Assembly (NCBI GenBank): GCA_963713655.1
Contig: CAVQMT010000044.1
Coordinates: forward strand, 6,686-70,685
Length of the DNA: 64,000 nt
Origin: an uncultured Acidobacteriota bacterium
GTDB taxonomy: Bacteria; Acidobacteriota; Vicinamibacteria; Vicinamibacterales; UBA2999
Direction of reading: 5' to 3'
The notes beneath the pieces were generated by a model. The model made no database searches and had not been told where the DNA came from. It saw only the letters and a program-made list of their open reading frames with translations. The position numbers and the translations under genes were made by a program. The first letter of the stretch is position 1, and the number at the start of each line of letters is the position of its first letter. This document shows, piece by piece, positions 7,773 to 64,000 of the stretch.

Positions 7773-7827
7773 TGTCTGTGCCCGGTGCAGAAAGCGGGCC
7801 AGCGGCGGCGTCTACAATCAGCACGTT

Positions 7828-9139
7828 GTGGCAAGCGCGCCCGAGCACGAGATCCTGACCGTCGGCCGCCGCGAGGTCGCCGTATCGAACCCGCGAAAGG
7901 TCCTGTTCCCGCAGGCGGGCCACACCAAGCTGGATCTGGCCCTCTACTACATCGCCGTGGCGGAGGGCGCGCTGCGCGGCGCGGGCGGCCGGCCGAACAT
8001 GCTGCTCCGGTTCCCGAACGGGATCGCCGAGGAGTCGTTCTACCAGAAGCGGGCACCCGACTCGCGGCCGCCGTGGATCGAAGTGGTCGAGCTGTCGTTT
8101 CCGTCCGGCCGCACGGCGAAGGAAGTGGTGCCGCGCGACGCCGCCGCGCTGGTGTGGATGGCCAACCTGGCGTGCCTCGAGCTGCATCCGCATCCGGTGC
8201 GCGCCGAAGACCTCGATCATCCCGACGAGATACGGATCGACCTCGATCCCGTGCCGGGCATCGAGTGGCCTCAGGTCCGCGAGGTGGCCGGTGTCGTGCG
8301 TGCGACCCTCGCCGATTTCGGCCTGGTGGGGTGGCCCAAGACCTCGGGCTCACGCGGCATGCACATCTACGTGCGCATCCAGCCGCGATGGGGCTTCACC
8401 GAGGTACGGCGGGCGGCCCTCGCGCTTGGCGCGCGAGGTGGAGCGGCGCGCGCCCACGCTGGCGACCAGCAAGTGGTGGAAGGAGGAGCGCCACGGCGTG
8501 TTCCTCGACTACAACCAGAACGCCAAGGACCGGACGATCGCCGCCGCCTATTCGGTGCGTCCCAAGCCCGATGCGCGCGTCTCGGCGCCGCTCGCCTGGG
8601 ACGAGGTCGGCGCCTGCGAGCCAGGCGACTTCACGCTGCGGACGATGCCGGCGCGGTTCGCCGAGGTGGGTGACCGCCATCGCGAGATCGATGCGTCGGC
8701 GGGCAGCTTGGAGGCGCTGCTCGAGCTGTCGGCGCGGCAGGAGAAGGAGGGTCTCGGCGACGCGCCGTGGCCGCCGCACTACCGCAAGCAGCCGGGCGAG
8801 GCGCCCCGGGTGGCGCCGTCCAAGCGGCGCGTGCCCAAGCACCCGCTGATCGAGATCGGACGGGCCCGAAACAAGGCCGACGCGCTCGCGGGCCTCGAGC
8901 GCTGGAAGGCGCGGCATCCGGAGGCCAGCGCGCATCTCGAGCCAGCAGACGTGCTGGTCGATGCGATGCGAGGGCGGTTCACCACCTGGACGCGCATCCG
9001 CGTCAACCTGCAGCACGTGCCGGCGGCGCTGCGGCCGGCGCAGGAAGCGCTCGACCCGGACGACGATCTGAACGACTGGCCCGCGCCGCCTGGCCGGCGT
9101 TACGCCCCGCTCGCGCCGAAGATCTTCTGCAGCTCGTAA
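7828..9139 (+). CDS. Stand-alone NHEJ polymerase/primase domain protein (LigD Pol-domain type) with a long C-terminal extension
   Basis: Contains VSNPRKVLFP, LELHPHP, WPKTSGSRGMHIYV, VFLDYNQNAKDRTIAAAYSVRP and LAWDEV. One frame hop occurs near 8425. About 130 aa follow the Pol core. Confidence 0.8.
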
Positions 9140-10186
9140 GGCGTCGTGACCTCCAGCTGGTCGTAGCGGCAGTCCTTCGGCTGGCGGTCGGGGCGCCACC
9201 GCTCGAACACGGCCGCGTGCCGGAACCGGTCGCCCTGCATGTGGTCGTATTTGACCTCGCACACGCGCTCGATCCTGAGGGGCTCCCACGACAGGTCCTT
9301 GCCGGCGCTCCACCGGCTCTGGCCTCCGGGCATGCGCGTCGAGCCGTCGCTGGCGGCCCACGCCCGCCACGGGTGGCCGTCCAGCGCTCCCGTCCGCAGC
9401 GGCTCGAGCTCCGTGGCCAGCTGCCGCCGCGCCGCCATCGTGAACGACGAGGTGACCCCGACGTGGTGCAGGTGGCCGGCATCGTCGTAGAGGCCGAGCA
9501 GCAGCGAGCCGACCAGCTCGCCGGGGCCGTTCTTGTGCCAGCGGAACCCGGCGACCACGCAGTCGGCGGTGCGCGCGTGCTTGATCTTGAGCATCGCCCG
9601 CTTGCCCGGCTGGTACTCCCCATCGGCCGGCTTGGCGATGACGCCGTCCAGGCCGGCGCCCTCGAACTGGGCCAGCCACTCGATCGCCAGCGCCCGATCG
9701 CGCGTCAGCGGTGTCAGGTGCACTGGCGGCCTGACTCCGCGCATCAGCCGCTCGAGGGCCGCCCGCCGCTCGCCTTGGCGATGCGCGCGCACGTCCCGGC
9801 CGTCGGCCGCCAGCAAGTCGAAGGCGACGAACGACGACGGCGTCTCGCGCGCCAGCTTCGCCACCCGCGACGCCGCCGGGTGGAGGCGCAGCTGCAGCGC
9901 GTCGAAGTCGAGCCCCTCGGGTGTGGCGATCACGATCTCGCCATCGACCACGCAGCCGTCGGGCAGCTGCGTGACGCAGCAGCTCGCTGAGCTCGGGGAA
10001 ATAGCGGTCCAGCGGGCGCAGGTCGCGGCTCTGGATGAAGATCTCGGTGCCGCCGCCGCGGAAGACGATGGCGCGGAACCCGTCCCACTTGGGCTCGAAC
10101 AGGAAGTCGCCCTCGGGGACCTCCTCGGTGAGCTTGGCGAGCATCGGCTCGACCGGGGGCTCGATGGGAAAGGCGCTCTTGGCCAT
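9100..10186 (-). CDS. ATP-dependent DNA ligase (LigD ligase-domain type)
   Basis: MAKSAFPIEPPVEPMLAKL...EPKWDGFRA contains the KxDGxR adenylation motif. LDGVIAKP, MLKIKHARTADCVV and RFRHAAVFERWRPDR are also present. One frame hop occurs near 9975. The gene is convergent with the Pol gene and overlaps it by about 40 nt. Confidence 0.8.
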
Positions 10187-10249
10187 GCGTCCGTACGCCG
10201 CGCGGACACTGATTATCGTCCGTCGCGGCGTCGCAGGCCCAGCCTGGCG

Positions 10250-10744: not shown

Positions 10745-11287
10745 ATGCGGGGACCGCGGAAATCTTCACAACCGGTGGCGGCAGGTGCGGTGCTGGCGTT
10801 CTGCCTTGGTTTGGCGTGGATGGCTACGCCCGGCGTCCAGCTCGCCGCGCAAGGGCCCAGCGCCGAGGACGTGGCCGCCGGTCTGCGCATCTTCCGCCAG
10901 AAGGCGGACTGCCAGGCCTGCCACGGCTGGGCCGGCGACGGCCGCAAGATGGACAGTCAGATGCCCGATGGCGCCAACTTGCGGACGACGAAGCTGAATC
11001 GGGACAAGCTGATCGTCGCGATCAAGTGCGGCGTGCCCGGCAAGGGGATGCCGGCGTTCGACCGCCTGGCCTACAGCGACGGGCGCTGCTACGGCATGAA
11101 GCAGGCGGATTTGGAACGCACCAACCTGACGATGCCGGATCCGGCGGCTACCCTGCAGGCGCGCGAGATCGAGCTCGTGGCCGACTTCCTGTTTGCCAAA
11201 GTCGTGGGCCAGGGGCCGATGGACCGCGCGAAATGCATCGAGTTCTGGGGATCGGACGTGGCGACGTGCGCGGAGTTTTCGAAGTAG
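10745..11287 (+). CDS. Secreted mono-haem c-type cytochrome
   Basis: ATG 10745. It has a signal peptide (AVLAFCLGLAWMATPGVQLAAQ), a CQACH haem-binding motif and a distal GMPAF. Confidence 0.75.
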   Translation: MRGPRKSSQPVAAGAVLAFCLGLAWMATPGVQLAAQGPSAEDVAAGLRIFRQKADCQACHGWAGDGRKMDSQMPDGANLRTTKLNRDKLIVAIKCGVPGKGMPAFDRLAYSDGRCYGMKQADLERTNLTMPDPAATLQAREIELVADFLFAKVVGQGPMDRAKCIEFWGSDVATCAEFSK

Positions 11288-11532: not shown

Positions 11533-12810
11533 GTGACCGAGATCGCCTTCGGACCCTTCACCATCGACCTGGCCAACTCCCGCATCTACGCGCGACGGCG
11601 TGGAAGTCCGGCTTCGCCCGCAGGCGTTTCAGGCGCTGCGCGTGCTGCTCCGGCACAACGGCCGCGCCGTCGGGCACGACCAGATGATCGCGGAGGCGTG
11701 GGACGGTACGCACGTGTCGCGCCACACCGTCGACGTGACCGTCGGCGAGGTGAAGAAGAGCCTGGGCGAATACGGGCGCTGGATCACGCACCGGCCCAAG
11801 GCGGGCTACTGCCTCGAGCTGCCGACGTCGGAGGAGCTGATTCGCAAGGGCTGGCACTTCTGGGATCGCCGCACGCGCGAGGGCGCGGAGCTGGCGATCG
11901 ACTGCTTCGAAAGCGCCGCGGCCGATTGTCCCGGCGACTTCCGCGCCTACGACGGCCTGTCGCAGTGCTACCTGATGCTGGCCGTGTTCGGGATGCAGCC
12001 CCCGACCGACGTCTATCCCAAGTTCCAGGAGGCCAACGAGCGCGCGGCGGCGCTAGGCGGCTTCCGGCCCGAGCTGCGCTGCAACCGGGCGCACGGCCTG
12101 CACCTGTTCGAGCGCCGCTATGCCGAGGCCGAAGCCGAGCTGCTGCGGACGCTGGAGGAGAAGCCGTCGCTCGGCGACGCCTACGTGCGCGCGGCGCTGC
12201 TCTATGCCAACCTCGATCGGCTCGACGACGCCGTGGCGATGCTGCAGCGCGGCGCCCAAGCCGATCCCCTGAAGGCGACGCTGCCGGCTACCGAGATCCA
12301 GATCCGCGTCTACCGGCGCGAGTTCGACGTGGCGATCGCCGTCGGCGCGCAAGGCCGTCGAGCTGCACCCGTACCTCCAGATCGTGCGGGTGCACTACGG
12401 GCAGGCGCTCGAGTTCTCCGGTCGGTTCGCCGAGGCCCTGCGGCAGTATCAGATCGCGTCGGTGATGTCGCCCGACTTGCCGTGGCTGCGGGCGCTCGAA
12501 GGCACCTGCCTGGCGAAGATGGGCCGCGAAGCCGAGGCCGGCGCCATCCTGGCGGAGCTGGACGAGCTGCGGCGGTCCGAATACGTGGACGCCTACTACA
12601 TGGCGGTCTTCCGCCAGCGCGCTCAATCGCACCGACGAGGCGTGGCTCGAGCTGGAGCGGTCGGTCGACGAGTACTCGGGCTTCGTCCTGGCGCTCCACG
12701 TCGATCCGAAGATGGACGTGTTCCGCCGCGATCCGCGCTTCGCCGCGCTCAGTCCTGTCGAACTACCTTCCCGCCCTTCATCACGAACCGCACACGCTGC
12801 AAAGCCGTGA
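11533..12810 (+). CDS. OmpR/CadC-type winged-helix DNA-binding domain fused to TPR repeats; apparent frameshifts
   Basis: FGPFTIDLANSRIY..VRLRPQAFQALRVLLRHNGRAVGHDQMIAEAWDGTHVSRHTVDVTVGEVKKSL is a trans_reg_C-like domain and is followed by TPR-like helices. Frame hops occur near 11595, 12355 and 12625. The 3' end is uncertain. Confidence 0.65.
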
Positions 12811-14131
12811 TGTCGGCGGTGGGGTCTCCCGGCACGGCCACGAGATCGGCGAATTTGCCCTTGGCGATCGAGCCGATCTGATCGCCCCAGCCCATCACCC
12901 GGGCGTTGACGATGGTGCCGGCCTGCAGCGCGGCCGCCGGCGTCATGCCGGTGCGCTTGACCAGCAGCTCGAACTCCAGCGCCTGGGTGCCGTGCGGAAA
13001 CGGACCGCCGTCCACGCCGCTGCCGATCATGGTGCGCAAGCCCTTGGTCTTCACCGCCATCGACACCGCCTTCTCGAAGATCGGGATCATGCGGAACTTG
13101 CCGCCGGTGGCCTTGGCGTCGTTGTCGTCCATGTAGGGCGCGGTGTAGCGCGCCAGCGTCGGGTCGAAGTCCAGCTTCTTCGCCACCATCTGGTCGAGCT
13201 GCGCCTGCGTCAGGCCGTAGCCGTGCTCGATGGTGTCGCAGCCGGTGGTGATGGCGTTCTGCAGCCCTTCGCCGCCGAAGGCGTGGCACGCCGCCTTGAG
13301 GCCGAGGCGGTGGGTTTCGTCCATGATCGCCTGCAGCACCGGCAACGGGTAGGTGAGCACGTACTCGCGCGGTGCCGGTCGGCGTGAACGAATAGGCGCC
13401 GGTCGGATAGAGCTTGATCCAGTCCACGCCTCTGGCCTTGTGGTCGCGCACCGCCGCGCGGCCTTCTTCAGCCGACCGGATGACGGTGCCGGCCAGCGGA
13501 TCGTCGGGCGCCGACGGGTTGGGCGGGGTGGCGGACCAGCGGATGCCGCGGCCGGCGACCTGGAACCGCGGGCCATCGAGGTCGCCCTGGTTGATCGCGT
13601 CGCGCATGGTCACGTCGGCGTAGCCGTTGGTGTGCGAGCTCATGTCGCGCGCGGCGGTGAAGCCGGCGCGCAGGTCGGCCTGCAGGTTCTGGACGGCGAT
13701 GATGGTGGCGCGCTCGCGCGATGGTGCCCTTCTCGGGCGTGTTGAACATGTGCGTGTGCGCGTCGATGAGTCCGGGCAGAACCGTGGCGTCGCTGAGATC
13801 GATCACCGCGGCCCCGGCGGGCGCTTTCACGCGCGACTCGGGCCCGACGTCCAGGATGCGCTCGCCCTGCACGAGGACGACCTGTTTCGTCAGCATCGTG
13901 CCGGCTTCGCTGTCGAACAGCCGCCCGGCACGTATGGCCGTGACGCGTGTGCTGGCTGGCGGGCACTGCAGCGTGCCGCCATCCGGCGCGACGCACGGGT
14001 GTGCGCCGACGTTGCGCCACGGATCCGGGCAGCTTCTGCCGCGGCGGCGTCGCCGGCGCCTGCGCGCTCAGCAGGGCGCACGCCGTCATGAACACGGCCA
14101 CCGGCAGCACGATGCGATCACGTCGGGTCAT
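12749..14131 (-). CDS. Secreted amidohydrolase-family metallohydrolase; about 4 apparent frameshifts
   Basis: It has a signal peptide (IVLPVAVFMTACALLSAQA). LPGLIDAHTHM is the HxH metal motif. ACHAFGGEG, TIEHG and GKFADLVAVPGDP are also present. Pieces lie in four ORF-track frames. Confidence 0.75.
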
Positions 14132-14178: not shown

Positions 14179-15176
14179 TTACCGAGCGGTGGTGGATCGT
14201 GACAGGCAGCGTGCCGCCTTGTTCGACGGGTCTGTCGGATCTGGATTCTGGCCGCGTCCCCGGGTCTCCCTGTACGCCTGGTGGCACGCGGCGCAGGCGT
14301 CGGAGAGGTCACCGGTGGCGTCCGACACGGCCTCCTGGCTCCTGGTCTGCGAGGCCTGGTAGGTTTTTCGCGCCACGGCGATCATCTCTTCGGTCAGCTT
14401 GATCCACAAGGCATCGGTGACTGGCGCCAGCCGCCCGTTCTCGCAGCGGATCCCCGGCGTCAGCATCAGGGGCGACGCGTCGGCCAACGCGATCGCGGCG
14501 TTGTCCACCAGCTGCCATCCGCCGTAGATGCCCGCTCCCCAGTCCACGAATGAGAAGCCGCCAGTCTGGCCGCCGCTGCCGCGGGGTCCGGCTTCGGAGC
14601 GGGCGCGCCGGGATCGTGTGTCTGCACCGTGAAGATCAGGTTCGAGTTCGGGAAGAAGATGCCGCGCATCAGCTGCGCCATGTTGCCGAGCGGCGGAAAG
14701 GCGCGAACCGCCGCGGCGGTTGCGGGCGCGGACGGCTGACTGGCCGGGCCGGGTGGCCAGCCGATCGCCGCAAGCGCGGCCTGCGCCGGGGCAAGCTCGG
14801 TGCGACCGGCGGGGAATCCGCCGAGCTTCAGGATGTGCGCCAGCACGTCGGACGTCTGGGCGGGCGACAGCGTCCCCTGGGCGTCGGCGGGCATCGTGTT
14901 GCGGATCTTGCCGGCGAGCGCGGAGAGCGGTTGTACGCGCCAGGTGCCGCGGAAGGCGTCGCCGACGAGCGGCGGCCCCTGCAGGCCTTCCGCCATCTTG
15001 CCGTGACACGACGCGCACTGCTTCGCATACAGCGCCTGACCGCGCGAGGCCTGGGCCTCGGTGAACACGCCGTCCTGCACGGTGCGCCGGACTGCGCCTG
15101 CACCGCGGTCAGCCATGACAGCGCTCATGGCCAGTATCTGGCCGGTCACTCGACCCGGGCTCGCGACGGACGGCAA
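14179..15176 (-). CDS. Two-domain c-type cytochrome (class I-like N-domain plus a C-terminal domain with a late CxxCH, as in cytochrome c'/c556)
   Basis: CASCHG lies in the N-terminal half and DACAACHQAYRE near the C-terminus. Frame hops occur near 15100 and 14540. It lies directly downstream of the PQQ dehydrogenase. Confidence 0.65.
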
Positions 15177-15193
15177 CGACCCTCATGGCCGGA

Positions 15194-16938
15194 CTAGTTC
15201 AGCGCGAACACGAACAGGTAGCTGGAGTTCTGCAGCTTGTCAAAGTTCACCGGGTGCAGGTGGCGGCCGCTGGCCTGCACCGCGAGAAACTGCTTCGGCC
15301 CGATCGCGTAGGTGACCGGCGCGCCCTTGAGCGGCGTGCCGACGTTGAAGCGCCACAGCTCTTCCAGCGTCTCGTCGTTGTAGGCCACGACCCAGCCGTC
15401 CTGCAGCGCCGTGAACAGCAGGCCGCCGGCGGTCACGGTCGCGCCCGAGCGGATCTCGATGTCGGTGACGGCCTTGGCCACCACCTTGTGGTTCACGGTG
15501 TCGAACGCCGTCACCGCGCCGTAGTAGAGGTCGCTGTTGAACTGGCGGCGCTCGCTGTTCTTGTTGTCGATGCCGCCGTCCTTGCCCAGCGACGCCACCG
15601 CGGCGCCCGTTCTGGCGTGAAGCATCCTTCGGTGCCGACGCCGTAGGCGATGCCCTTGACCGGGTTGTAGGCCATCGGCTGATGCGCCACGCCGCCGTGC
15701 CAGGTCGGGCAGCTGCGCTTGCGGCCGTCGCCGCGCAGCGCGCGCGCCTCGGGGTTGTAGATCTGCACGTCGAGCTTGGGGTTGTAGTCGAGCGGCTTGC
15801 CGCTCTCGGGGTGGATGCCCTTGGTCCAGTTCAGGTCGTTGACGTACTTCTCGGCCTTGATGAAGCGGCCGTTGGTGCGATCCACCGAGTAGAAGAAGCC
15901 GTTGCGGGCGAAGTGGCCGACCACCTTGCGATCGATGCCCTGGATCTTCTGGTCGTAGAGCATGAACACGCCGGCCTCGTCGAAGTCCCACGAGTCGTTG
16001 GGCGTGTACTGGAAGTGCCACTTCATCTTGCCGGTGGCGACGTCGAGCGCGACCACCGAGTTGGTGTAGAGGTTGTCGCCAGGGCGGAACTGCGGGTCGT
16101 AGATCGGGAACGGGTTGCCGGTGCCGAAGATGTAGAGGTTCTGCGCCGCGTCGTAGGAGCCCGTCTGCCAGATGCCGCCGCCGCCGGTCTTCCACGCGTT
16201 GTGGTCGTCCTTCCAGGTCTCGCTGCCGGGATCGCCCGGCTTCGGCACGGTGTACCAGCGCCACAGCTCGTTGCCGGTGTTGACGTCGAGGGCCGCCACC
16301 CAGCCGCGCGTGCCGCCGTCGCCGGCGCCGTTCTGCACCAGCACCTTGCCGTCGGCGACGATGGGCGCGGTCAGGAAGCGCTCCTGGTTGCCGAACTCGT
16401 TCTTGGTCATGATCTTCTTGTCCCAGAGGATCTCGCCGTTGTCGCGGTTGATCGCGATCACGCGGCCATCGGGCAGGTTGGCCAGGACCTTGTTCTCCCA
16501 CAGCGCGATGCCGCGGGTGCGCGAGGTGTTGCCTTCGTGCGCGACGCCGGGGTCGGCCACCCACACGAACGAGCCGCGCTGCGGGTTGCGCGCGTCGATC
16601 TTGTAGACCGTGCCCCAGCCGTCGCTGGTGTACATGAAGCCGTTGTCGATGAGCGGGTTGACTTCGCTCTCGGGCCCGTTCTGCCCGACGTCCTGCATGC
16701 CGCCGAGCGCCATCGCCCACACCATCCGCAGATCCTTCACGTTGGTGCGGTTGATCTGGGTCAGGCGGGAATAGCGCAGCGACCCGTAGTCGCCGTTCAT
16801 CAGCAGCCAGTTCTGCGGCTCGTTCTGCGCGTTGATCAGCCGGTCCTTGTTGACCGTCAGCGAATACTGGGCGGACGTGGTGACCATCAGCGCGGTCGCC
16901 GCGACGAGAGCCGTCAGGAGGGCGGTCTTGAGGCGCAT
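15194..16938 (-). CDS. PQQ-dependent dehydrogenase, methanol/ethanol family, with D-x-D (lanthanide-type) motif
   Basis: ATG 16938 with a GAGAGGA RBS and a signal peptide (ALLTALVAATALMVTTSAQ). Eight-bladed propeller W-motifs are present (ELWRW, MKWHFQ, EELWRF). DSWDFDE is encoded at 15976-15996. One frame hop occurs near 15.62 kb. Confidence 0.85.
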
Positions 16939-17004
16939 CGGTGAAATCCTCTCGGGTGGCACGCCCCATACCGTGGGCCGCACCGGCGACATAATACTGC
17001 GGTC

Positions 17005-17938
17005 ATGAAATTCACAATTCACAATTCAGAATTCAGAAACTGCAGCCGGAACTGCTTCTCTGGCCGCCTTTTGCGGGCGAGCCTGCCCCTGGCAGCCGCC
17101 TTGTTCCTGCTGGCGTCGCCGGGGCTGGCGCAGACGTCGAACAAGGCCGCTCCGGTGGTGGTCAGCCATTTCCACCTGAACGTGACCAGCATCGACGCTC
17201 ACAAGAAGTTCTGGGTCGATACCCTGGGTGGCACTGCGCTCAGGCTGAATGGTCTCGACGCCGTCCAGTTCCCCGACATCTATATCTTTCTCCGCCAGCA
17301 GGCGCCCACGGGCCCGACGCGCGGCACGGCGTTCGATCACATCGGGTTCGCCGTGCCGGACGTGCCGGCGTTGACGACTCGGGTGGTGGCCGCGGGATAT
17401 CAGCTGACCACCGGCCGCGAGCCGGCGCCGGGGCAGGAGGCCGCGGCGGCGACCGGCACCCAGGCGCCGTACGGCCGCTTTTCGTATCTGCTGGGCCCTG
17501 ACGGCGCGAAGGTGGAATTGGTGACGGCAGCCGGCGCCGAGCGCGCCTCCGATCGCGTATCACCACATTCACTTCATCAACAAGCAGTACGTCGAGATGC
17601 AGCAGTGGTACATGAAAGTGTTCGACGCCACGCTGCGCCCGGGTCAGACCGACTTCTTCATCGGCGCGGACCTGCCCGGCGTCGGCTACAGCCTCAACTT
17701 CTTCCGCTGGGAAGGGGATCAAGCCGTGACCCACGCCACCACGGCGGGACGAGTGATGGACCGTGCCGGGTTCGACGTGCGGAACCTCGAAGACTTCTGC
17801 AAGCGCCTGGAGGCCAAGGGCGTGGCGCTGACGGTGCCGTACCGGCGCCGTCCCGACTTCGGGAATCTGGGCACCGCCGTGATCACCGATCCGTGGGGCA
17901 CCGTGATCGAGTTGACCGAAGGGCTCGCGGGCCGTTGA
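17005..17938 (+). CDS. Secreted two-domain VOC (glyoxalase/bleomycin-resistance/dioxygenase) family protein
   Basis: It has a signal peptide (LPLAAALFLLASPGLAQT). HFHLNV...FDHIGFAVPD and HHIHF...DRAGFDV are paired VOC modules. One frame hop occurs near 17555. An alternative start is TTG 17071. Confidence 0.65.
17009..17036. repeat. AT-rich tandem heptamers AATTCAC x2 then AATTCAG x2
   Basis: Direct reading. They lie between the divergent PQQ-dehydrogenase and VOC genes, or inside the first 11 codons of the VOC gene if ATG 17005 is used. Confidence 0.9.
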
Positions 17939-18106
17939 GCGGCTGGCGAACGGAAACGTCATCGAATTCCCGAGTATCTACAAAAAAGTATGACGTCGCG
18001 TCCGGCCTCGAACCGCGCCGTCGATTCGGCGCCGTTCGGGAATGACGGCCGGCTGTATACTCGAATCCTACAGTGTTGTTTGATTCAAGCATTCATGTTA
18101 CGTGAT

Positions 18107-19743: not shown

Positions 19744-19840
19744 ACAGGTCGCGTTTTTCCGTCGGCAGATCGGGCCAGCCCCGACGGCATCAGACGACGG
19801 CAGCCGTATACTCATAATCTTTCCAATGCGGAGGTATGAG

Positions 19841-21209
19841 ATGCGGTGCCGGGTGTCTGCCGTGGCGGGCGCGGTGCTGGCGGTGGGTATCCTCGCCGCC
19901 GTGCCGGTCGGCCATGCCGAACAAGCCGCGCAGGGCGCGGGCCCTGCCGGCCGGGCCCAAGGCGCCGGGCGCGGGCCGGTGCGGCCCGAGTGCGTCAATC
20001 CGGCGCTGCCGGCCGCGGAGTGCAACATCCCGCCGGGGATCAACTGGCCCGATCCGCCGCTCGGCGCGGGGCCGTTCCTGCTCGAAACCGCGGTGCCCGC
20101 AGCACCGCAACATCCGCGTCGTGGTGGTGGCGACCGGGCTGAACCAGCCCTGGTCCATGACCTGGCTGCCCGACGGCACCATGCTCGTCACCGAGCGTGC
20201 CGGGCGGCTGCGCGTGATCCGCAACGGCGTGCTGGATCCGAACCCGGTGGCGGGCGTGCCTGAGGTGCGCGCGCAGGGTCTGCAGGGCCTGATGGACGTG
20301 GTGCTGCACCCGCGCTTCGCGGAGAACCGCTACGTCTATCTGTCCTATCACAAGCCCTTCCCGGTTCCCGGCGCCACCACCCCGCAGGGCGCACCGCTCG
20401 TCGAGGGCGAGACCGTGCATCGCGCGCGGCACCTGGAACGGCACGGCGCTCACCGACGTGCGCGACATCTTTCGATCGGGTGCCACGCGGACCGAGTCGT
20501 CGCGCATCGGCTTCGCGCGCGACGGCATGCTGCACATGACCATCAGCGCGTCGGGCACCGGTCCCGACGTGATGCGCTCCGCGGATCCCAACGACTACGC
20601 CGGCAAGACCGTGCGCCTGCGCGACGACGGCACCATCCCGCCCGACAACCCGTTCGTGGGCAAGGCCGGCTACAAGCCGGGGATCTACACGCTCGGGTCA
20701 TCGCAACGGCCATTCGATGGCGCTCAACCCCGAGACGGGCGAGTTCTGGGTCACGGAGCAGGGGCCCAACGGCGGCGACGAGATCAACGTGCTGAAGCCG
20801 GGCGCGAACTACGGCTGGCCCTACGCCAGCCACGGGCGCAGCTACATGGGGCCGCGCATCTCGCCGACGCCGGGCCGCGACGGCACCGAGCAGCCGGTGG
20901 TCGTCTGGGTGCCGTCGATCGCCGCGGCCGGCGGCGACCTTTTACACCGGCGACAAGTTCCCGGGCTGGCAGCGCAACTTCTTCGTCGGCGGCCTGCGCG
21001 AGGGCGAGACGCCGCGCACCGGCCAGATGCAGCGCATCGAGTTCAACGAGCGCTGGGAGGAGATCCGGCGCGAGCCGCTGCTGCGCGAGCTGAAGCAGCG
21101 CATCCGCGACGTGCGGCAAGGACCCGATGGGCTGATCTACGCGCTGACGAGCGAGAACCCGGGTGCCGTGCTGCGCCTCGAGCCGGCAGAGGCACCGGCC
21201 GCGCGTTGA
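19841..21209 (+). CDS. PQQ-dependent sugar dehydrogenase (soluble aldose/sorbosone dehydrogenase family); at least 4 apparent frameshifts
   Basis: GGAGG RBS 6 nt upstream of ATG 19841 and a signal peptide. Contains GLNQPWSMTWLPDGTMLVTERAGRLRVI, GLMDVVLHP, GHRNGHSMALNPETGEFWVTEQGPNGGDEINVLKPGANYGWP and PDGLIYALT. Confidence 0.8.
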
Positions 21210-30428: not shown

Positions 30429-31241
30429 GTGCGGCAACGGAAGTACGGGTTCTGGATCCTGGCGCTGGCCCTCACCTGGTCGGCGGCGGCCCCCGGCGCG
30501 CTCCTGGCCCAACAGGCCCAGGACATCCCGGCGCAGCCCCCGAGCGCGCTGGCGCCCGACAACCTGGCGAAGCCGCGCCCGGCGGCGCCGTTCAACCTGA
30601 CCGGGAACTGGTTCATCGACAACACGCCGGCGGTGCAAGGGTGGCTGTTCGGGCCCGCCGCCATCCCCAAGCTGCTGCCCGATGCCCAGAAGCACCGCGA
30701 TGCCTACGTCAAGGCGACAGCGGAGGGGAAGGTCTACCGCGACGACATCGGCCAGTGCTGGCCGGCCGGCGTGCCGATCATCATGACCCGGGTGTGGCCG
30801 ATCGCGATGATCCAGCTGCCGACCGCCATCTACATGGTCAGCGGCTTCATGAACAGCCTGCGCACCGTCTTCATGGACGGCCGCTCCCACACCGACCCTG
30901 ATATCGTCGTGCGGACGTTCAACGGCGAGTCGATCGGGCGCTGGGAGGGCGACACGCTGGTGATCGAGACCAAGAACTTCATCGACGACGAGCACCACTG
31001 GGTGGACCAGGGGGTCCGCGCCAGCGGCGAGCTGAAGATCGTCGAGCGGGTCCGGATGATCAACAACGGCCGGACCCTCGAGATCCAGATGACGCTCACG
31101 GATCCGAAGAACTGGGAAGGCGAGTACAAGGGCACCCGCCGGTGGAACCGCGTGGACGACATCGACATCGCGGAAGTGGAGTGCCTGCCAGACCTCAACG
31201 AGCATCTGCAGAGCACGTCGTCGAAAGTGCACGTCCGCTAG
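30429..31241 (+). CDS. Secreted uncharacterised protein, paralog A1
   Basis: Intact 270-aa ORF with a signal peptide (FWILALALTWSAAAPGALLAQQ). Contains LTGNWFID, GQCWPAG, VFMDGRSH and GRWEGDTLVIETKNF. About two thirds of residues are identical to the 31671-32543 product by eye. Confidence 0.7.
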   Translation: MRQRKYGFWILALALTWSAAAPGALLAQQAQDIPAQPPSALAPDNLAKPRPAAPFNLTGNWFIDNTPAVQGWLFGPAAIPKLLPDAQKHRDAYVKATAEGKVYRDDIGQCWPAGVPIIMTRVWPIAMIQLPTAIYMVSGFMNSLRTVFMDGRSHTDPDIVVRTFNGESIGRWEGDTLVIETKNFIDDEHHWVDQGVRASGELKIVERVRMINNGRTLEIQMTLTDPKNWEGEYKGTRRWNRVDDIDIAEVECLPDLNEHLQSTSSKVHVR

Positions 31242-31267
31242 GACCGCACACCAAGGAGACTGGACTG

Positions 31268-31669
31268 ATGAGAAGGACTGTTCTGTTGCCGTGCGTGCTG
31301 GCCGCGATGGTGGCCGTGCCGGTGTTCGCGCATCACTCGCCGGCGGCGTTCGACCGCACCAAGGAGGTCACGCTGGTCGGCATCGTCAAGGAGTTCCGCT
31401 GGCAGAACCCGCACACCTGGATCGAGATGAACGTGCCCGATCCCGTCACGAAGAAGGACGTGCTGTGGGGTGTGGAGCTGACCTCTCCGACCTACCTGGT
31501 GCGCGCCGGCTGGAAATCCAACCTGATCAAGCCCGGCGACAAGGTCACCGTGGTGGTCAATCCGGTTCGCAGCGGCGAGCCCTCCGGTATCTTCCGCTCG
31601 CTGACGCTGGCCGATGGCCGCACGTTCCTCGAACGGCCGGCGCGTCTCGGCACGGCCGAGTCCAAGTAA
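31268..31669 (+). CDS. Small secreted protein resembling the DUF6152 type (mature N-terminus His-His-Ser)
   Basis: Intact 133-aa ORF. The signal peptide LAAMVAVPVFA is followed by HHSPAAFD (31331-31339). Contains FRWQNPHTWIEM and KPGDKVTVVVNPVRSGEPSG. Confidence 0.7.
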   Translation: MRRTVLLPCVLAAMVAVPVFAHHSPAAFDRTKEVTLVGIVKEFRWQNPHTWIEMNVPDPVTKKDVLWGVELTSPTYLVRAGWKSNLIKPGDKVTVVVNPVRSGEPSGIFRSLTLADGRTFLERPARLGTAESK

Positions 31670-31670
31670 C

Positions 31671-32543
31671 GTGCGTGTGCCCCTGAAACGCCTGGGCCTT
31701 CACGCGCTCGCGCTGACGGCGATCGTCGCTCTGCCGCTGCTGCTACTGCCAGCGTCCTGCAGCGCGCCGCCGCTCGAAGCTCCCGCGCCGGCTGCGACAG
31801 GCGCCGGCGAGGTTTCGCCCGCCGGGGCCGAGCCCGTGAGCGCGCTGGCTCCCGCCAATCTGGCCAAGGCACGTCCGGCCGCGCCCTTCAGCGTGACCGG
31901 CAACTGGTTCATCGACGTCAGCCAGAACCCCGACGCGTGGCGGTTCGGGCCGCCGTATCCGGCCCTGAAACCGGGCGCGCAGAAACACGCCGACGCCTCC
32001 AAGAAGGCCACGGCCGAGGGCAAGGTCTATCGCGACGACATCGGGCAGTGCTGGCCGGCCGGCCTGCCGCTCATCATGACCCGCTACTGGCCGATGGCGA
32101 TGATCCAGCTGCCGACGGCGATCTACATGGTCAGCGGCTTCATGAACAGCCTCCGCATCGTCTATCTGGACGGCCGCAGCCACACCCCCGAGGACATCGT
32201 CGTGCGCACGTTCAACGGCGAGTCGATCGGCCGTTGGGAAGGCGACACGCTGGTGGTGGACACCCGCCATTTCCGCGCCGACCACCACTGGATGGACCAG
32301 GGCGGCGTGTCGATTCCGGCGGGCGAGCAGCTGCGCATCGTCGAGCGCATCAAGTCGGTGAGCGACGGCAAGCAGCTCGAGATCGAGTACACGATGACCG
32401 ACCCGGAAAACTGGGACGGCGAATGGAAGAGCACCAAGCGCTTCAACCGGGTGGACGACGTGGACATCCAGGAAGTGTCGTGCCTGCCCGACTTGAACGA
32501 GCACCTGCAGAGCACGACGTCGAAGACGCAGGTGCTGCAGTAG
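31671..32543 (+). CDS. Secreted (possible lipoprotein) uncharacterised protein, paralog A2
   Basis: GTG 31671 lies 1 nt after the upstream stop. LLLLPASC is lipobox-like. It shares the A1 motifs VTGNWFID, GQCWPAG, VYLDGRSH and GRWEGDTLVVDTRHF. Confidence 0.7.
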   Translation: MRVPLKRLGLHALALTAIVALPLLLLPASCSAPPLEAPAPAATGAGEVSPAGAEPVSALAPANLAKARPAAPFSVTGNWFIDVSQNPDAWRFGPPYPALKPGAQKHADASKKATAEGKVYRDDIGQCWPAGLPLIMTRYWPMAMIQLPTAIYMVSGFMNSLRIVYLDGRSHTPEDIVVRTFNGESIGRWEGDTLVVDTRHFRADHHWMDQGGVSIPAGEQLRIVERIKSVSDGKQLEIEYTMTDPENWDGEWKSTKRFNRVDDVDIQEVSCLPDLNEHLQSTTSKTQVLQ

Positions 32544-61914: not shown

Positions 61915-62689
61915 GGCTATGATCGGTACTCCGGAAATCGCGACCGCCAGCCTTTGAGGGCGCGGGAAGGGCATACTGCCGGCGCCTCCCGTATTCCGCA
62001 CCCCGACTTGCCGGCGTGCTTTGCACGCTGGTCTCTCGTCCCTCCCGCCCTTCCGCTGCCACCGCAACTAGTCCGTAATTCCACCGAGAACCATCGTGAC
62101 AATGCACCGTCCGGGTGGTTACCGACCGTTCGCGAGTGTCTGTCTTGCGCGCTACGCGCGCAACATCCGCAGCTGTTGACGACCAAGTCCGGCGTGTCGG
62201 GCGTCTACCTCGATAGCATTTGGGGACTTGTGAGACCGTCACCGTATCCGCCGCGTGGCCGCATTCGCCGGTGGAGTCGAGCGTTCGATGGCTCCCTCTC
62301 GTCGGACTTATGGCTCCCGCCGGAGGCTACGCTCACAACATTTGGTGAGCCATTCCTAGCCTCCGTGGCGGTCTCCGGTCCACTCGGGCCGATTCCTGCG
62401 ATTTTCTGCGATTATCTCGTCCGCGTTGTCCGGCCCACCCCTTGCTGCCTTCGCAGCAAGTCCTCCGGAGAGCGGTTTTCCGCGATATCCGGGATCAGAC
62501 CCGGGGGGCTGTCCACGGAACCGGCGAGATTCAGCGCGAGCCGCATCGTTATTTAAGTACTCTGGGCGAATTGCTGCTTGTAGATAATGAGAGACTGAAC
62601 CAACTTGGTCAGGGAACCGCACGCTCGGTCGCGGTAAGCACAACGCGCGAGCGTCATTTCCTCGCCGGAAAAGGAACTGGGGAAGCACC
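61915..62689. other. 775-nt unassigned, visibly lower-GC, hairpin-rich non-coding region (candidate ncRNA or long structured leader)
   Basis: No frame gives a credible protein. A nested hairpin spans 62316-62371 (GGAGGCTA..TAGCCTCC enclosing GCTCAC..GTGAGC). A perfect 8-bp hairpin, CTTGCTGC-CTTC-GCAGCAAG, lies at 62441-62460. Confidence 0.5.
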
Positions 62690-64000
62690 ATGTCGAAGAG
62701 AGAAGACGAGAGAGAAGATACCCGTGATCCGTTTGATCCCTCGGCGCAGGTGCCGTCGGTTCCGACCGGCCTGGACCGCCGAAAGTTCATCATGCGCAGC
62801 GCCGTGATCTCGGCAGCGGCAGTGATGAACGGCTGCGCGCGATCGGAGACCGAACAGAAGGCCCCGCCGCCAGTAGCCGAATCCGCAGCGGCCGATGCGC
62901 CCTCAGTCCCGTTGGCTGCCGACCTGAACGTGGTGATGAAGGCAAAGGGGCCGGTGTTGACGACCGCGGACGAGTTCTACAAGGTGGGACCTGGCCCTTC
63001 CAGTTCGCACACGATTGGTCCGATGCGCATCACCTACGATTTCTACCAGCGAGCGGCCAAACTGCCGGCCGACAAACTCGCCACGGCGACGAAGCTTCAG
63101 GTGAACTTGTTCGGAAGCCTCAGCGCGACAGGCAAGGGACACGGCACGGAACGAGCCGCGCTCGCAGGGCTCGTCGGGAAAGAACCGGCAACAGTCGACC
63201 CGAAGTTTCTGGACGGCTTGCGAGACAAGCCTGATCAGGTGTTCCCGGTGAAGCTGGGCAACAAGTCAATCAATGTGAGCCTCAAGGACGTCATCTACGA
63301 TGCGACCAAGGGCGACTTCAAGCACCCGAACACGATGACGGTCAAGCTCCTCGCCGGCAACGATGTGTTGCTCGAGCAGGAGTACTACTCGGTGGGCGGC
63401 GGATTCATCGAGTGGAAGGGGTATACGCCCCCGAAGAAGAACCCGCCGAAGTACCCGTTCGCGACGATGAAGGAACTGCGGGCCCACGCCGACAACAACA
63501 AGATCACGATCGCCAAGGTCATGCTTGCCAACGAGATGTCGATCGCGGGCAGGTCGGAAGAGGAGGTCAATGCCTTCATCGACAAGATCATCAACGCGAT
63601 GGTCGCGACGGTGAAATCGGGGCTGTCGATGCCGGAGGATGACGTGCTGCCCGGCCCGATCAAGCTGCACAGCAAGGCAGCGTCGGTTTACAAGCGCGCC
63701 AGGGACGACAAGTTCGAATCGGACCGCGGCATCGCCGGTCTGTCGGCGTTCGCGCTGGCGGCATCCGAAGAGAACGGGCGCGGACACCTCGTCATCACCG
63801 CTCCGACCGGCGGTTCAGCCGGTGTCATGCCGTCGCTGGTCTATGGGCTGATGGAGGTCCGAAAAGTCGACCGGCAGAAGGTCCGTGACGGCATGCTCGC
63901 GGCTGGGCGATCGGCTACCTCTGCAAGCACCATGCGACGCTGTCTGCGGCCGAGGGCGGCTGCCAGGCAGAGATCGGCGTGGCGTCGGCGATGGCTGCAG
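62690..64000 (+). CDS. sdaA: Iron-sulfur L-serine dehydratase (single-chain) with an N-terminal twin-arginine signal; runs off the window
   Basis: ATG 62690. LDRRKFIMRSAVISAAAVMNGC is a Tat-like leader. Also contains FYKVGPGPSSSHTIGPM, LFGSLSATGKGHGT, YYSVGGGFI and ITAPTGGSAGVMP. One frame hop occurs near 63903 (IGYLCKHHATLSAAEGGCQAEIGVASAMAA). Confidence 0.85.
   Translation, partial: MSKREDEREDTRDPFDPSAQVPSVPTGLDRRKFIMRSAVISAAAVMNGCARSETEQKAPPPVAESAAADAPSVPLAADLNVVMKAKGPVLTTADEFYKVGPGPSSSHTIGPMRITYDFYQRAAKLPADKLATATKLQVNLFGSLSATGKGHGTERAALAGLVGKEPATVDPKFLDGLRDKPDQVFPVKLGNKSINVSLKDVIYDATKGDFKHPNTMTVKLLAGNDVLLEQEYYSVGGGFIEWKGYTPPKKNPPKYPFATMKELRAHADNNKITIAKVMLANEMSIAGRSEEEVNAFIDKIINAMVATVKSGLSMPEDDVLPGPIKLHSKAASVYKRARDDKFESDRGIAGLSAFALAASEENGRGHLVITAPTGGSAGVMPSLVYGLMEVRKVDRQKVRDGMLAAGRSATSASTMRRCLRPRAAARQRSAWRRRWLQ

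Follow-up and report, generated by a model that had tools for sequence, protein, structure and literature searches.

The window analysed here, a 64,000-nucleotide stretch of contig CAVQMT010000044.1 from an uncultured bacterium of the Vicinamibacterales (Acidobacteriota), carries on its minus strand a gene for a predicted lanthanide-type dehydrogenase dependent on pyrroloquinoline quinone (PQQ). A gene for a two-domain dihaem cytochrome c follows directly downstream, and a gene for a monoheme cytochrome c lies farther along on the opposite strand (Table 1). The dehydrogenase gene is interrupted by a single frameshift at ~15614. An indel had been suspected near 15.62 kb in an earlier, sequence-only reading of the locus (hereafter the initial annotation), and it is real: tblastn with the intact, 580-residue orthologue P0001 (98% identity) splits there into two frames, residues 1-441 matching 16938-15616 and residues 442-580 matching 15613-15197 in the other frame. 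The window, with a G+C content of ~70%, contains single-base indels throughout, and almost all of its genes are divided between frames. Compared with a near-identical metagenome locus (L006), it exhibits 96.9% identity and 135 gap openings per 21.8 kb (measured on positions 5202-26984), an indel load that fits an unpolished long-read assembly. Dehydrogenase orthologues derived from Illumina data are intact. Because the indels are pervasive and differ between these near-identical contigs, the dehydrogenase frameshift and the indels of the dihaem cytochrome gene are assembly errors. The dehydrogenase gene is therefore read as intact, its apparent break being a sequencing indel, and its product is very probably an intact PQQ dehydrogenase homologue.

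The identification of the protein as a PQQ dehydrogenase is borne out by a Pfam match to PF01011 (PQQ; 4.5e-61) and by its matches to proteins of known structure. The best of these in the PDB, all of them full length, are the quinohaemoprotein alcohol dehydrogenase (qhADH; 1kb0, E 9e-74), the lanthanide-dependent PedH (6zcw, E 5e-71) and XoxF (4mae, E 2e-68), the MxaF methanol dehydrogenases coming next; the closest solved structures are ~35% identical to the family. The AlphaFold2 (AF2) model of P0001 is of high confidence (predicted local distance difference test, pLDDT, 91.3; predicted template-modelling score, pTM, 0.91). Foldseek analysis of this ligand-free model, a comparison at the level of the fold, ranks PedH 6zcw first (template-modelling score, TM, 0.83/0.86) and returns qhADH, XoxF and MxaF at TM ~0.8 as well. 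The protein is a secreted periplasmic eight-bladed PQQ-dependent dehydrogenase with the alcohol-dehydrogenase fold.

Active-site residues were mapped by HMMER alignment onto the chain numbering of 4mae (XoxF of M. fumariolicum SolV). The mapping was checked on the known XoxF ligands E172, N256, D299 and D301, which land on the expected letters, and conservation was followed in 80 orthologues, 74-95% identical, from GTDB species-representative genomes. Residues C104-C105, R110, E172, W238, N256, D299, D301 and R326 of XoxF correspond to G136-N137, R142, D207, W257, N275, D318, D320 and R345, respectively, of the dehydrogenase. The initial annotation had taken the motif DSWDFDE, with a second Asp two residues past the catalytic one, as the mark of a lanthanide enzyme. 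This motif and the others quoted are found where they had been reported, and the D-x-D assignment stands under proper alignment: D318 and D320 correspond to D299 and D301 of XoxF and to both Asp residues of PedH, the segment 'NDSWDFDE' aligning with PedH 'HDGWDFDG', while the Ca-type qhADH reads 'GDNWDYTS' at this place. The absence of the vicinal Cys-Cys pair, also put forward then, is genuine and no indel artefact: Gly136-Asn137 occupies its position, and 'CC' occurs nowhere in the whole sequences of any of the 80 orthologues. A second departure, overlooked at that time, affects the metal site itself. The segment 'AGDGGTRG' aligns without gaps with 'GGEFGVRG' of both 4mae and 6zcw, which places Asp207 where these enzymes have the metal-binding Glu. 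Residues E92, G136, R142, D207, W257, N275, D318, D320, E321, R345, H419 and R496 are invariant in 80/80 orthologues and N137 is found in 78/80, within an alignment in which 223 of the 580 columns are invariant. The predicted active site retains the PQQ-contacting Glu, Arg, Trp and Arg, and the predicted metal site comprises Asp207, Asn275, Asp318 and Asp320, the last of which corresponds to the additional lanthanide-coordinating residue of XoxF, ExaF and PedH. Mutagenesis in XoxF1 and ExaF showed that lanthanide coordination and activity require this +2 Asp (bioRxiv 10.1101/2020.02.25.964783).

None of the curated family models covers the dehydrogenase family, which is named 'PQQ-binding-like beta-propeller repeat protein' by NCBI (in Vicinamibacterales) and 'alcohol dehydrogenase (cytochrome c)' by JGI. 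The repaired window protein scores 409.2 bits with TIGR03075 (methanol/ethanol family, cut-off 480); its nearest relatives score 337-456 bits, and only some more distant relatives pass. Among the features of that family, the eight-bladed propeller is present in the AF2 model, D318, W257, R142 and R345 are aligned and invariant, and the metal-binding Asn is retained as N275, while the vicinal Cys-Cys and the bidentate Glu are missing. As the score, the Cys pair and the Glu ligand all fall short, the protein lies outside the curated methanol/ethanol family, even though it possesses, as D320, the Asp that characterises the lanthanide type. With TIGR04528, named 'acido-empty-quinoprotein group A', the score is 333 bits where 650 are required, so that the protein is not a member. 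The resemblance to this group is that it gathers acidobacterial quinoprotein homologues, some of them devoid of Cys-Cys; P0302, a 36% identical relative without the Cys pair, reaches 573 bits, still below 650. An exhaustive search of 50%-identity representatives places the next full-length relatives at 41-48% identity, and this gap defines the dehydrogenase family as a tight orthologous group. In a rough neighbour-joining tree (43 representatives and four solved enzymes, with reference sequences rebuilt from HMMER alignments), the family forms a long branch within a clade of Cys-less enzymes with Asp at the Glu position and a D-x-D-E motif, and PedH, XoxF and qhADH fall in the other half of the tree, away from this clade. 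The vicinal disulfide is absent from the larger clade around the family, most members of which have Asp at the metal-binding Glu position, and the underlying alignment indicates that loss of the Cys pair accompanies the replacement of 'GE[YF]G' by 'GD' in many lineages. The family is set apart here by this rough tree and by its NCBIfam scores.

Compared with the known quinoproteins, the window enzyme shares with the PedH/ExaF type (6zcw), its best structural match, the eight-bladed propeller, both aligned Asp residues of 'WDFD', the Asn, Trp and Arg of the PQQ-metal pocket, a periplasmic location and, presumably, a cytochrome c acceptor. However, their identity amounts to ~28% in the structural alignment and an estimated ~35-38% over the HMMER-aligned regions, and the window enzyme differs by the lack of Cys-Cys, the Asp in place of the bidentate Glu, the Ala-His and Arg changes in its pocket (see below) and its separate branch in the tree. 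With XoxF (4mae, 6dam, 6oc5) it has in common the fold, the Sec signal peptide and three of the four metal-ligand positions (N256, D299, D301). In contrast, the fourth ligand, E172, is an Asp in the window enzyme, which has no Cys-Cys and stays below the curated family cut-off; its locus is devoid of xoxJ, and neither of its cytochromes is a XoxG/MoxG equivalog. The type II qhADHs (1kb0, 1yiq, 1kv9) provide the best sequence match and work with a class I cytochrome c domain, as the window enzyme may also do, but they are of the Ca type ('WDYT'), possess the Cys-Cys pair and carry their cytochrome as a fused domain, whereas the cytochromes of the window are encoded by separate genes. Surveys have described 14-17 PQQ-dehydrogenase families, mostly with the lanthanide motif and including some from Acidobacteria (PMC11996626; bioRxiv 10.64898/2026.07.10.737718), and D-x-D quinoproteins without Cys-Cys have been noted in Thaumarchaeota (PMC7300363). 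Therefore, a predicted lanthanide-type quinoprotein of this sort is not new in kind. No paper on the dehydrogenase family was found in the literature on Vicinamibacter or Polynucleobacter with PQQ or on the absence of the disulfide.

The dehydrogenase family is abundant in soil metagenomes. A word-indexed search returns >120 database clusters at 78-98% identity, and GTDB species genomes contain 358 loci, the best 80 of which span the Vicinamibacterales and other Acidobacteriota, the Burkholderiales and other Betaproteobacteria, and alphaproteobacterial metagenome-assembled genomes (MAGs). The genome nearest to the window is L012, a Microflora Danica long-read MAG, with a 95% identical dehydrogenase and the gene order of the window. 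Two hosts are cultured, Polynucleobacter rarus MT-CBb6A5 (78% identity) and P. kasalickyi VK13 (79%). Identities of 74-95% across phyla imply horizontal spread together with strong constraint. On one Vicinamibacterales contig (L005, 1-9844) the orthologue is immediately preceded by two small cytochrome c genes and at least three additional paralogues of the PQQ dehydrogenase.

The cytochrome that accompanies the dehydrogenase across phyla is the monoheme one, which the initial annotation had not linked to it. This protein exhibits class I features (CxxCH, a 'GMPAF' Met and the PF13442 match), and members of its family, ~175 residues long, contain CQACH, GxxMPAF and four additional Cys; it corresponds to no NCBIfam equivalog and does not match the MoxG model TIGR03872. 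Of 78 orthologous loci with 3' flank, 40 have this gene within 400 nt of the dehydrogenase and 53 within 5 kb, always in convergent orientation. Spacings of up to 400 nt are found in 11 of the 13 such loci labelled Beta- or Alphaproteobacteria, both Polynucleobacter isolates included, so that the adjacency recurs in Acidobacteriota, Beta- and Alphaproteobacteria. In P. rarus (L043, 9956-12278) and P. kasalickyi (L050), 41-44 nt separate the two convergent genes. The presence of the pair in freshwater Polynucleobacter at 78-79% dehydrogenase identity indicates horizontal transfer of the two genes together. In the window the monoheme cytochrome gene, whose product is 61% identical to that of the gene directly after the P. 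rarus dehydrogenase, stands 3.9 kb from the dehydrogenase stop; the intervening genes for the dihaem cytochrome, an amidohydrolase and a TPR regulator-like protein are read as a lineage-specific insertion. A reverse check started from soil-metagenome contigs that carry relatives of the monoheme cytochrome with 3' flank, a sample of 68 with short flanks that is skewed to the closest relatives of the window's cytochrome; a dehydrogenase gene lies within 4 kb on 12 of them, and an association of this cytochrome exclusively with the dehydrogenase is rejected.

The dihaem cytochrome gene starts 7 nt past the dehydrogenase stop, if a one-base insertion in a G run is allowed for, and this spacing makes co-transcription of the two genes likely. 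A promoter and terminator scan returned no promoter-like site and two terminator-like sites, fewer than expected from shuffled sequence. The two-domain architecture that had been proposed, a class I CxxCH domain fused to a C-terminal cytochrome c'-like domain with CAACH, agrees with the matches to PF13442 and PF01322. The N-terminal domain belongs to class I (PF13442, 3.1e-14; AF2 pLDDT 81-97). The C-terminal domain resembles the class II cytochromes c (cytochrome c' and the low-spin c556 type) in its CxxCH near the C-terminus, its helical nature and its weak but specific matches: PF01322 scores 29.3 bits (1.8e-6; cut-off 26.5) in a match confined to the final 42 positions of the profile, phmmer reaches cytochrome c' 1bbh with E=0.003, and the helical AF2 model (pLDDT 60-84) yields Foldseek hits with a probability of 0.98 and TM ~0.5 at E-values >0.1. 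It differs from them in being joined to a preceding class I domain by a Pro/Ala-rich linker, in its length (~175 residues versus ~130), in two extra invariant Cys and in its N-terminal half, which has no detectable sequence similarity to theirs. Across 38 family members the invariant positions include both CxxCH motifs, the Met of 'TMP', the two extra Cys and, within the first helix of the second domain, two Met. From this pattern we infer a His/Met low-spin electron carrier and not a gas-binding cytochrome c'; Met residues in the first helix are likewise found in the Met-ligated low-spin members of class II.

This cytochrome had been described as unusual and as paired with the dehydrogenase. 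The first description does not hold, since the fusion of a class I and a cytochrome c'-like domain occurs in 1621 database clusters at E<=1e-5, >120 of them at >=69% identity. The second holds within the sub-lineage of the window, where the gene lies directly downstream of the dehydrogenase in the window, L006, L007 and L012 only; it is not downstream in 79/80 orthologous genome loci. In the other Vicinamibacterales genomes checked (P0165, P0168) the dihaem cytochrome gene stands alone, away from any PQQ gene. The contexts of the dehydrogenase in the 80 genomes and those of the cytochrome family itself therefore reject the dihaem cytochrome as a conserved partner. With the MoxG/XoxG model TIGR03872 it scores 27.6 bits, against a cut-off of 147.8. 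A different cytochrome, of 148 residues and with ~43% identity to the N-terminal domain of the dihaem cytochrome, is encoded upstream of the dehydrogenase in a sub-clade at 83-87% identity, either directly (L013, L015, L019) or at a distance of ~4-5 kb (L014, L018).

The lack of pqq or xoxJ genes nearby, reported in the initial annotation, is upheld by two lines of evidence. The Pfam table of the collinear L006 lists no pqq biosynthesis gene, xoxJ-like binding protein or TonB receptor within ~10 kb, and when all of the window was scanned crudely for motifs, no coding frame contained a radical-SAM or PqqA-like pattern; the same scan finds only three cytochrome c haem motifs. That pqq genes are missing is no surprise, since the Vicinamibacteria have been reported as PQQ scavengers, which encode the PQQ importer PqqU but not PQQ synthesis (PMC12124388). 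On the other side of the dehydrogenase, a divergent gene encodes a secreted protein of the VOC/glyoxalase fold, which adjoins the dehydrogenase only in L004, L006, L007, L012 and the window. Next to the locus lies a gene for a GSDH-type soluble PQQ sugar dehydrogenase; many six-bladed PQQ enzymes of this type are reported to bind lanthanides (2026 preprint, 10.64898/2026.07.10.737718). A porin and a pirin are encoded nearby as well. As the VOC, porin, GSDH and pirin genes are common only to close relatives, they say little about the substrate.

Table 1. Features of the dehydrogenase locus and its surroundings (window coordinates)
Feature	Position	Strand	Remarks
Monoheme cytochrome c gene	10745..11287	+	180 aa, four further Cys; convergent with the dehydrogenase gene; PF13442 3.4e-8
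CQACH	10910-10924	+	haem motif of the monoheme cytochrome
GKGMPAF	11039-11059	+	Met motif of the monoheme cytochrome
TPR regulator-like gene	~11533-12750	+	open reading frames (ORFs); Pfam tables of collinear L006 and L007
Amidohydrolase gene	~12749-14131	-	ORFs; Pfam tables of collinear L006 and L007
Two-domain dihaem cytochrome c gene	14179..15186	-	~330 aa, ~four indels, with frameshifts at ~15180 and ~14570; directly downstream of the dehydrogenase gene
CAACH	14281-14295	-	haem 2; motif
GNMAQLMRG	14661-14687	-	start of the second domain; motif
NTMPAD	14883-14900	-	likely axial Met; motif
CASCH	15003-15017	-	haem 1; motif
PQQ dehydrogenase gene	15194..16938	-	ATG 16938, TAG 15194-15196; 580 aa once one frameshift is repaired
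Frameshift site	15610..15616	.	sequencing or assembly indel; GCFTPE, then TGAAV in the other frame, in the window versus GCFTQTGAAV in orthologues
FARNGF	15895..15912	-	PQQ-binding Arg345 (XoxF SolV R326); alignment
DSWDFDE	15976..15996	-	Asp318 catalytic base, Asp320 lanthanide hallmark, then invariant Glu321; alignment
GTGNPF	16108..16125	-	metal-binding Asn275 (XoxF SolV N256); alignment
GAGDGGTRG	16303..16329	-	Asp207 at the bidentate metal-binding Glu position of XoxF, MxaF and PedH; alignment
Loop HEGNTSRTRGIALW	16498..16539	-	Gly-Asn in place of vicinal Cys-Cys, PQQ-binding Arg142 retained; alignments to 4mae, 6zcw, 1kb0 and 1yiq
Sec-type signal peptide MRLKTALLTALVAATALMVTTSAQ	16867..16938	-	read from the sequence, presumed cleavage; low-confidence N-terminal helix in AF2
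Secreted VOC/glyoxalase-fold gene	17005..17940	+	frameshifted, apparent duplicated domain; divergent from the dehydrogenase gene
GSDH-type soluble PQQ sugar dehydrogenase gene	19800-21200	+	six-bladed, frameshifted; adjoins the locus

Taken as a whole, these data make it reasonably probable, with substantial room for doubt, that the gene encodes an intact secreted PQQ dehydrogenase that uses a lanthanide and delivers its electrons to c-type cytochromes, the lanthanide dependence being a prediction from one hallmark residue. Since pqq genes are missing from the neighbourhood and the class is reported to import PQQ, the cofactor is probably scavenged. PQQ and a light lanthanide would then be bound at the centre of the propeller, the metal being held by D207, N275, D318, D320 and PQQ, and Asp318 would serve as the base in the periplasmic oxidation of an alcohol, an aldehyde or a sugar hydroxyl. 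The resulting PQQH2 would be reoxidised by a soluble c-type cytochrome, from which electrons would reach the respiratory chain. In the lineage of the window, the likely first acceptor would be the co-transcribed dihaem cytochrome, with its class I domain and its low-spin-looking class II domain, whereas this position may belong to the convergent monoheme cytochrome in the majority of other hosts.

Several points weigh against this proposal. D-x-D has been demonstrated to be necessary, not sufficient, for lanthanide use, a caveat that applies especially to a remodelled site. The PQQ pocket departs from that of the characterised enzymes not only by the disulfide loss and the Glu-to-Asp change but also by an Ala-His where others have Asn or Asp and by an Arg where others have Trp; with several positions altered, the cofactor geometry may differ. 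The structural agreement with PedH is one of overall fold, and the TIGR03075 score falls below its cut-off. The linkage of the dihaem cytochrome is confined to one sub-lineage, and that of the monoheme cytochrome is loose in the reverse check. For all family members, metal, cofactor and activity are predictions made from sequence.

The most serious alternative, which we regard as unlikely although it deserves to be kept in view, is that the enzyme uses Ca2+ or another divalent metal despite its D-x-D motif, the all-carboxylate site with the shorter Asp207 being an adaptation unrelated to lanthanides. The Glu-to-Asp change and the remodelled pocket are without characterised precedent among the solved enzymes compared, XoxF1 is able to bind Ca2+ when lanthanides are absent (bioRxiv 10.1101/2020.02.25.964783), and one survey reports mixed metal motifs inside families (PMC11996626). 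However, all 80 orthologues keep both Asp320 and the Glu that comes after it, while every solved Ca-type enzyme compared exhibits Ala, Ser or Thr at the Asp320 position. Much less credible is the assignment to a XoxF-type methanol dehydrogenase, with the host living as a lanthanide-dependent methylotroph. The D-x-D motif, the common fold and the c-type cytochrome neighbours would agree with it, but the protein remains below the TIGR03075 cut-off, it lacks the Cys pair, its neighbourhood contains no xoxJ-like gene, and the rough tree assigns the protein to the Cys-less clade away from XoxF, PedH and qhADH. Neither cytochrome reaches the MoxG/XoxG model, the monoheme one giving no match at all, and the GSDH, VOC and porin neighbours suggest sugar or other periplasmic oxidations. 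Finally, a decaying pseudogene or a non-catalytic 'empty' propeller with residual motif conservation, which the frameshift and the resemblance to the TIGR04528 model might evoke, is highly improbable and is rejected on the indel density relative to L006 and on the tblastn result with P0001: the indels are pervasive and contig-specific, the Illumina-derived orthologues are intact, the invariant columns across phyla reflect extreme purifying selection, and the TIGR04528 score stays far under its cut-off. The 'empty' in the name of that model presumably denotes a host that does not synthesise PQQ, not a protein that has lost catalysis.

Lanthanide-type PQQ dehydrogenases are thought to outnumber the calcium types in soils and oceans, and the characterised ones are, to our knowledge, only XoxF and the ExaF/PedH-like enzymes. 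The value of the present family lies in its abundance, its conservation across phyla, its altered metal site and its cultured hosts, and it combines two departures from the textbook active site, the absent Cys-Cys and the Asp in place of Glu. If its members are active with lanthanides, it would follow that electrons can reach cytochrome c without the vicinal disulfide; the sequence rules by which lanthanide enzymes are called in metagenomes would broaden, and a common gene of the Vicinamibacterales, a dominant and little-cultured soil group, would gain a function. If they prove calcium-dependent, they would warn against taking D-x-D as sufficient. The prediction is directly testable, because orthologues at 78-79% identity exist in the cultured P. 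rarus and P. kasalickyi. A bolder extension, which we hold to be quite doubtful, is that the dehydrogenase travels horizontally with a c-type cytochrome as a small mobile module, maintained at 74-95% identity from soil Acidobacteriota to freshwater Polynucleobacter. The enzyme would then be a lanthanide quinoprotein of a distinct mechanistic class: three Asp and one Asn would make up its metal site, electrons would reach cytochrome c in the absence of a redox-active disulfide, and its substrate would be a single, specific and ecologically widespread one.

Elsewhere in the window, positions 7800-10200 contain frameshifted genes for a LigD-type DNA ligase and a primase-polymerase (non-homologous end joining). 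At the far end (62000-64000) the G+C content drops to 62%, and an ORF resembling L-serine dehydratase (63236-63760, YSVGGGFI) exhibits an atypical codon-position composition; this end could be foreign DNA or a mis-join. Two paralogous genes of ~270-310 codons are near neighbours on the same strand at 30438-32540 (+), with a small ORF between them, and their products share the long conserved stretch ...GKVYRDDIGQCWPAG.P.IMTR.WP.AMIQLPTAIYMVSGFMNSLR...

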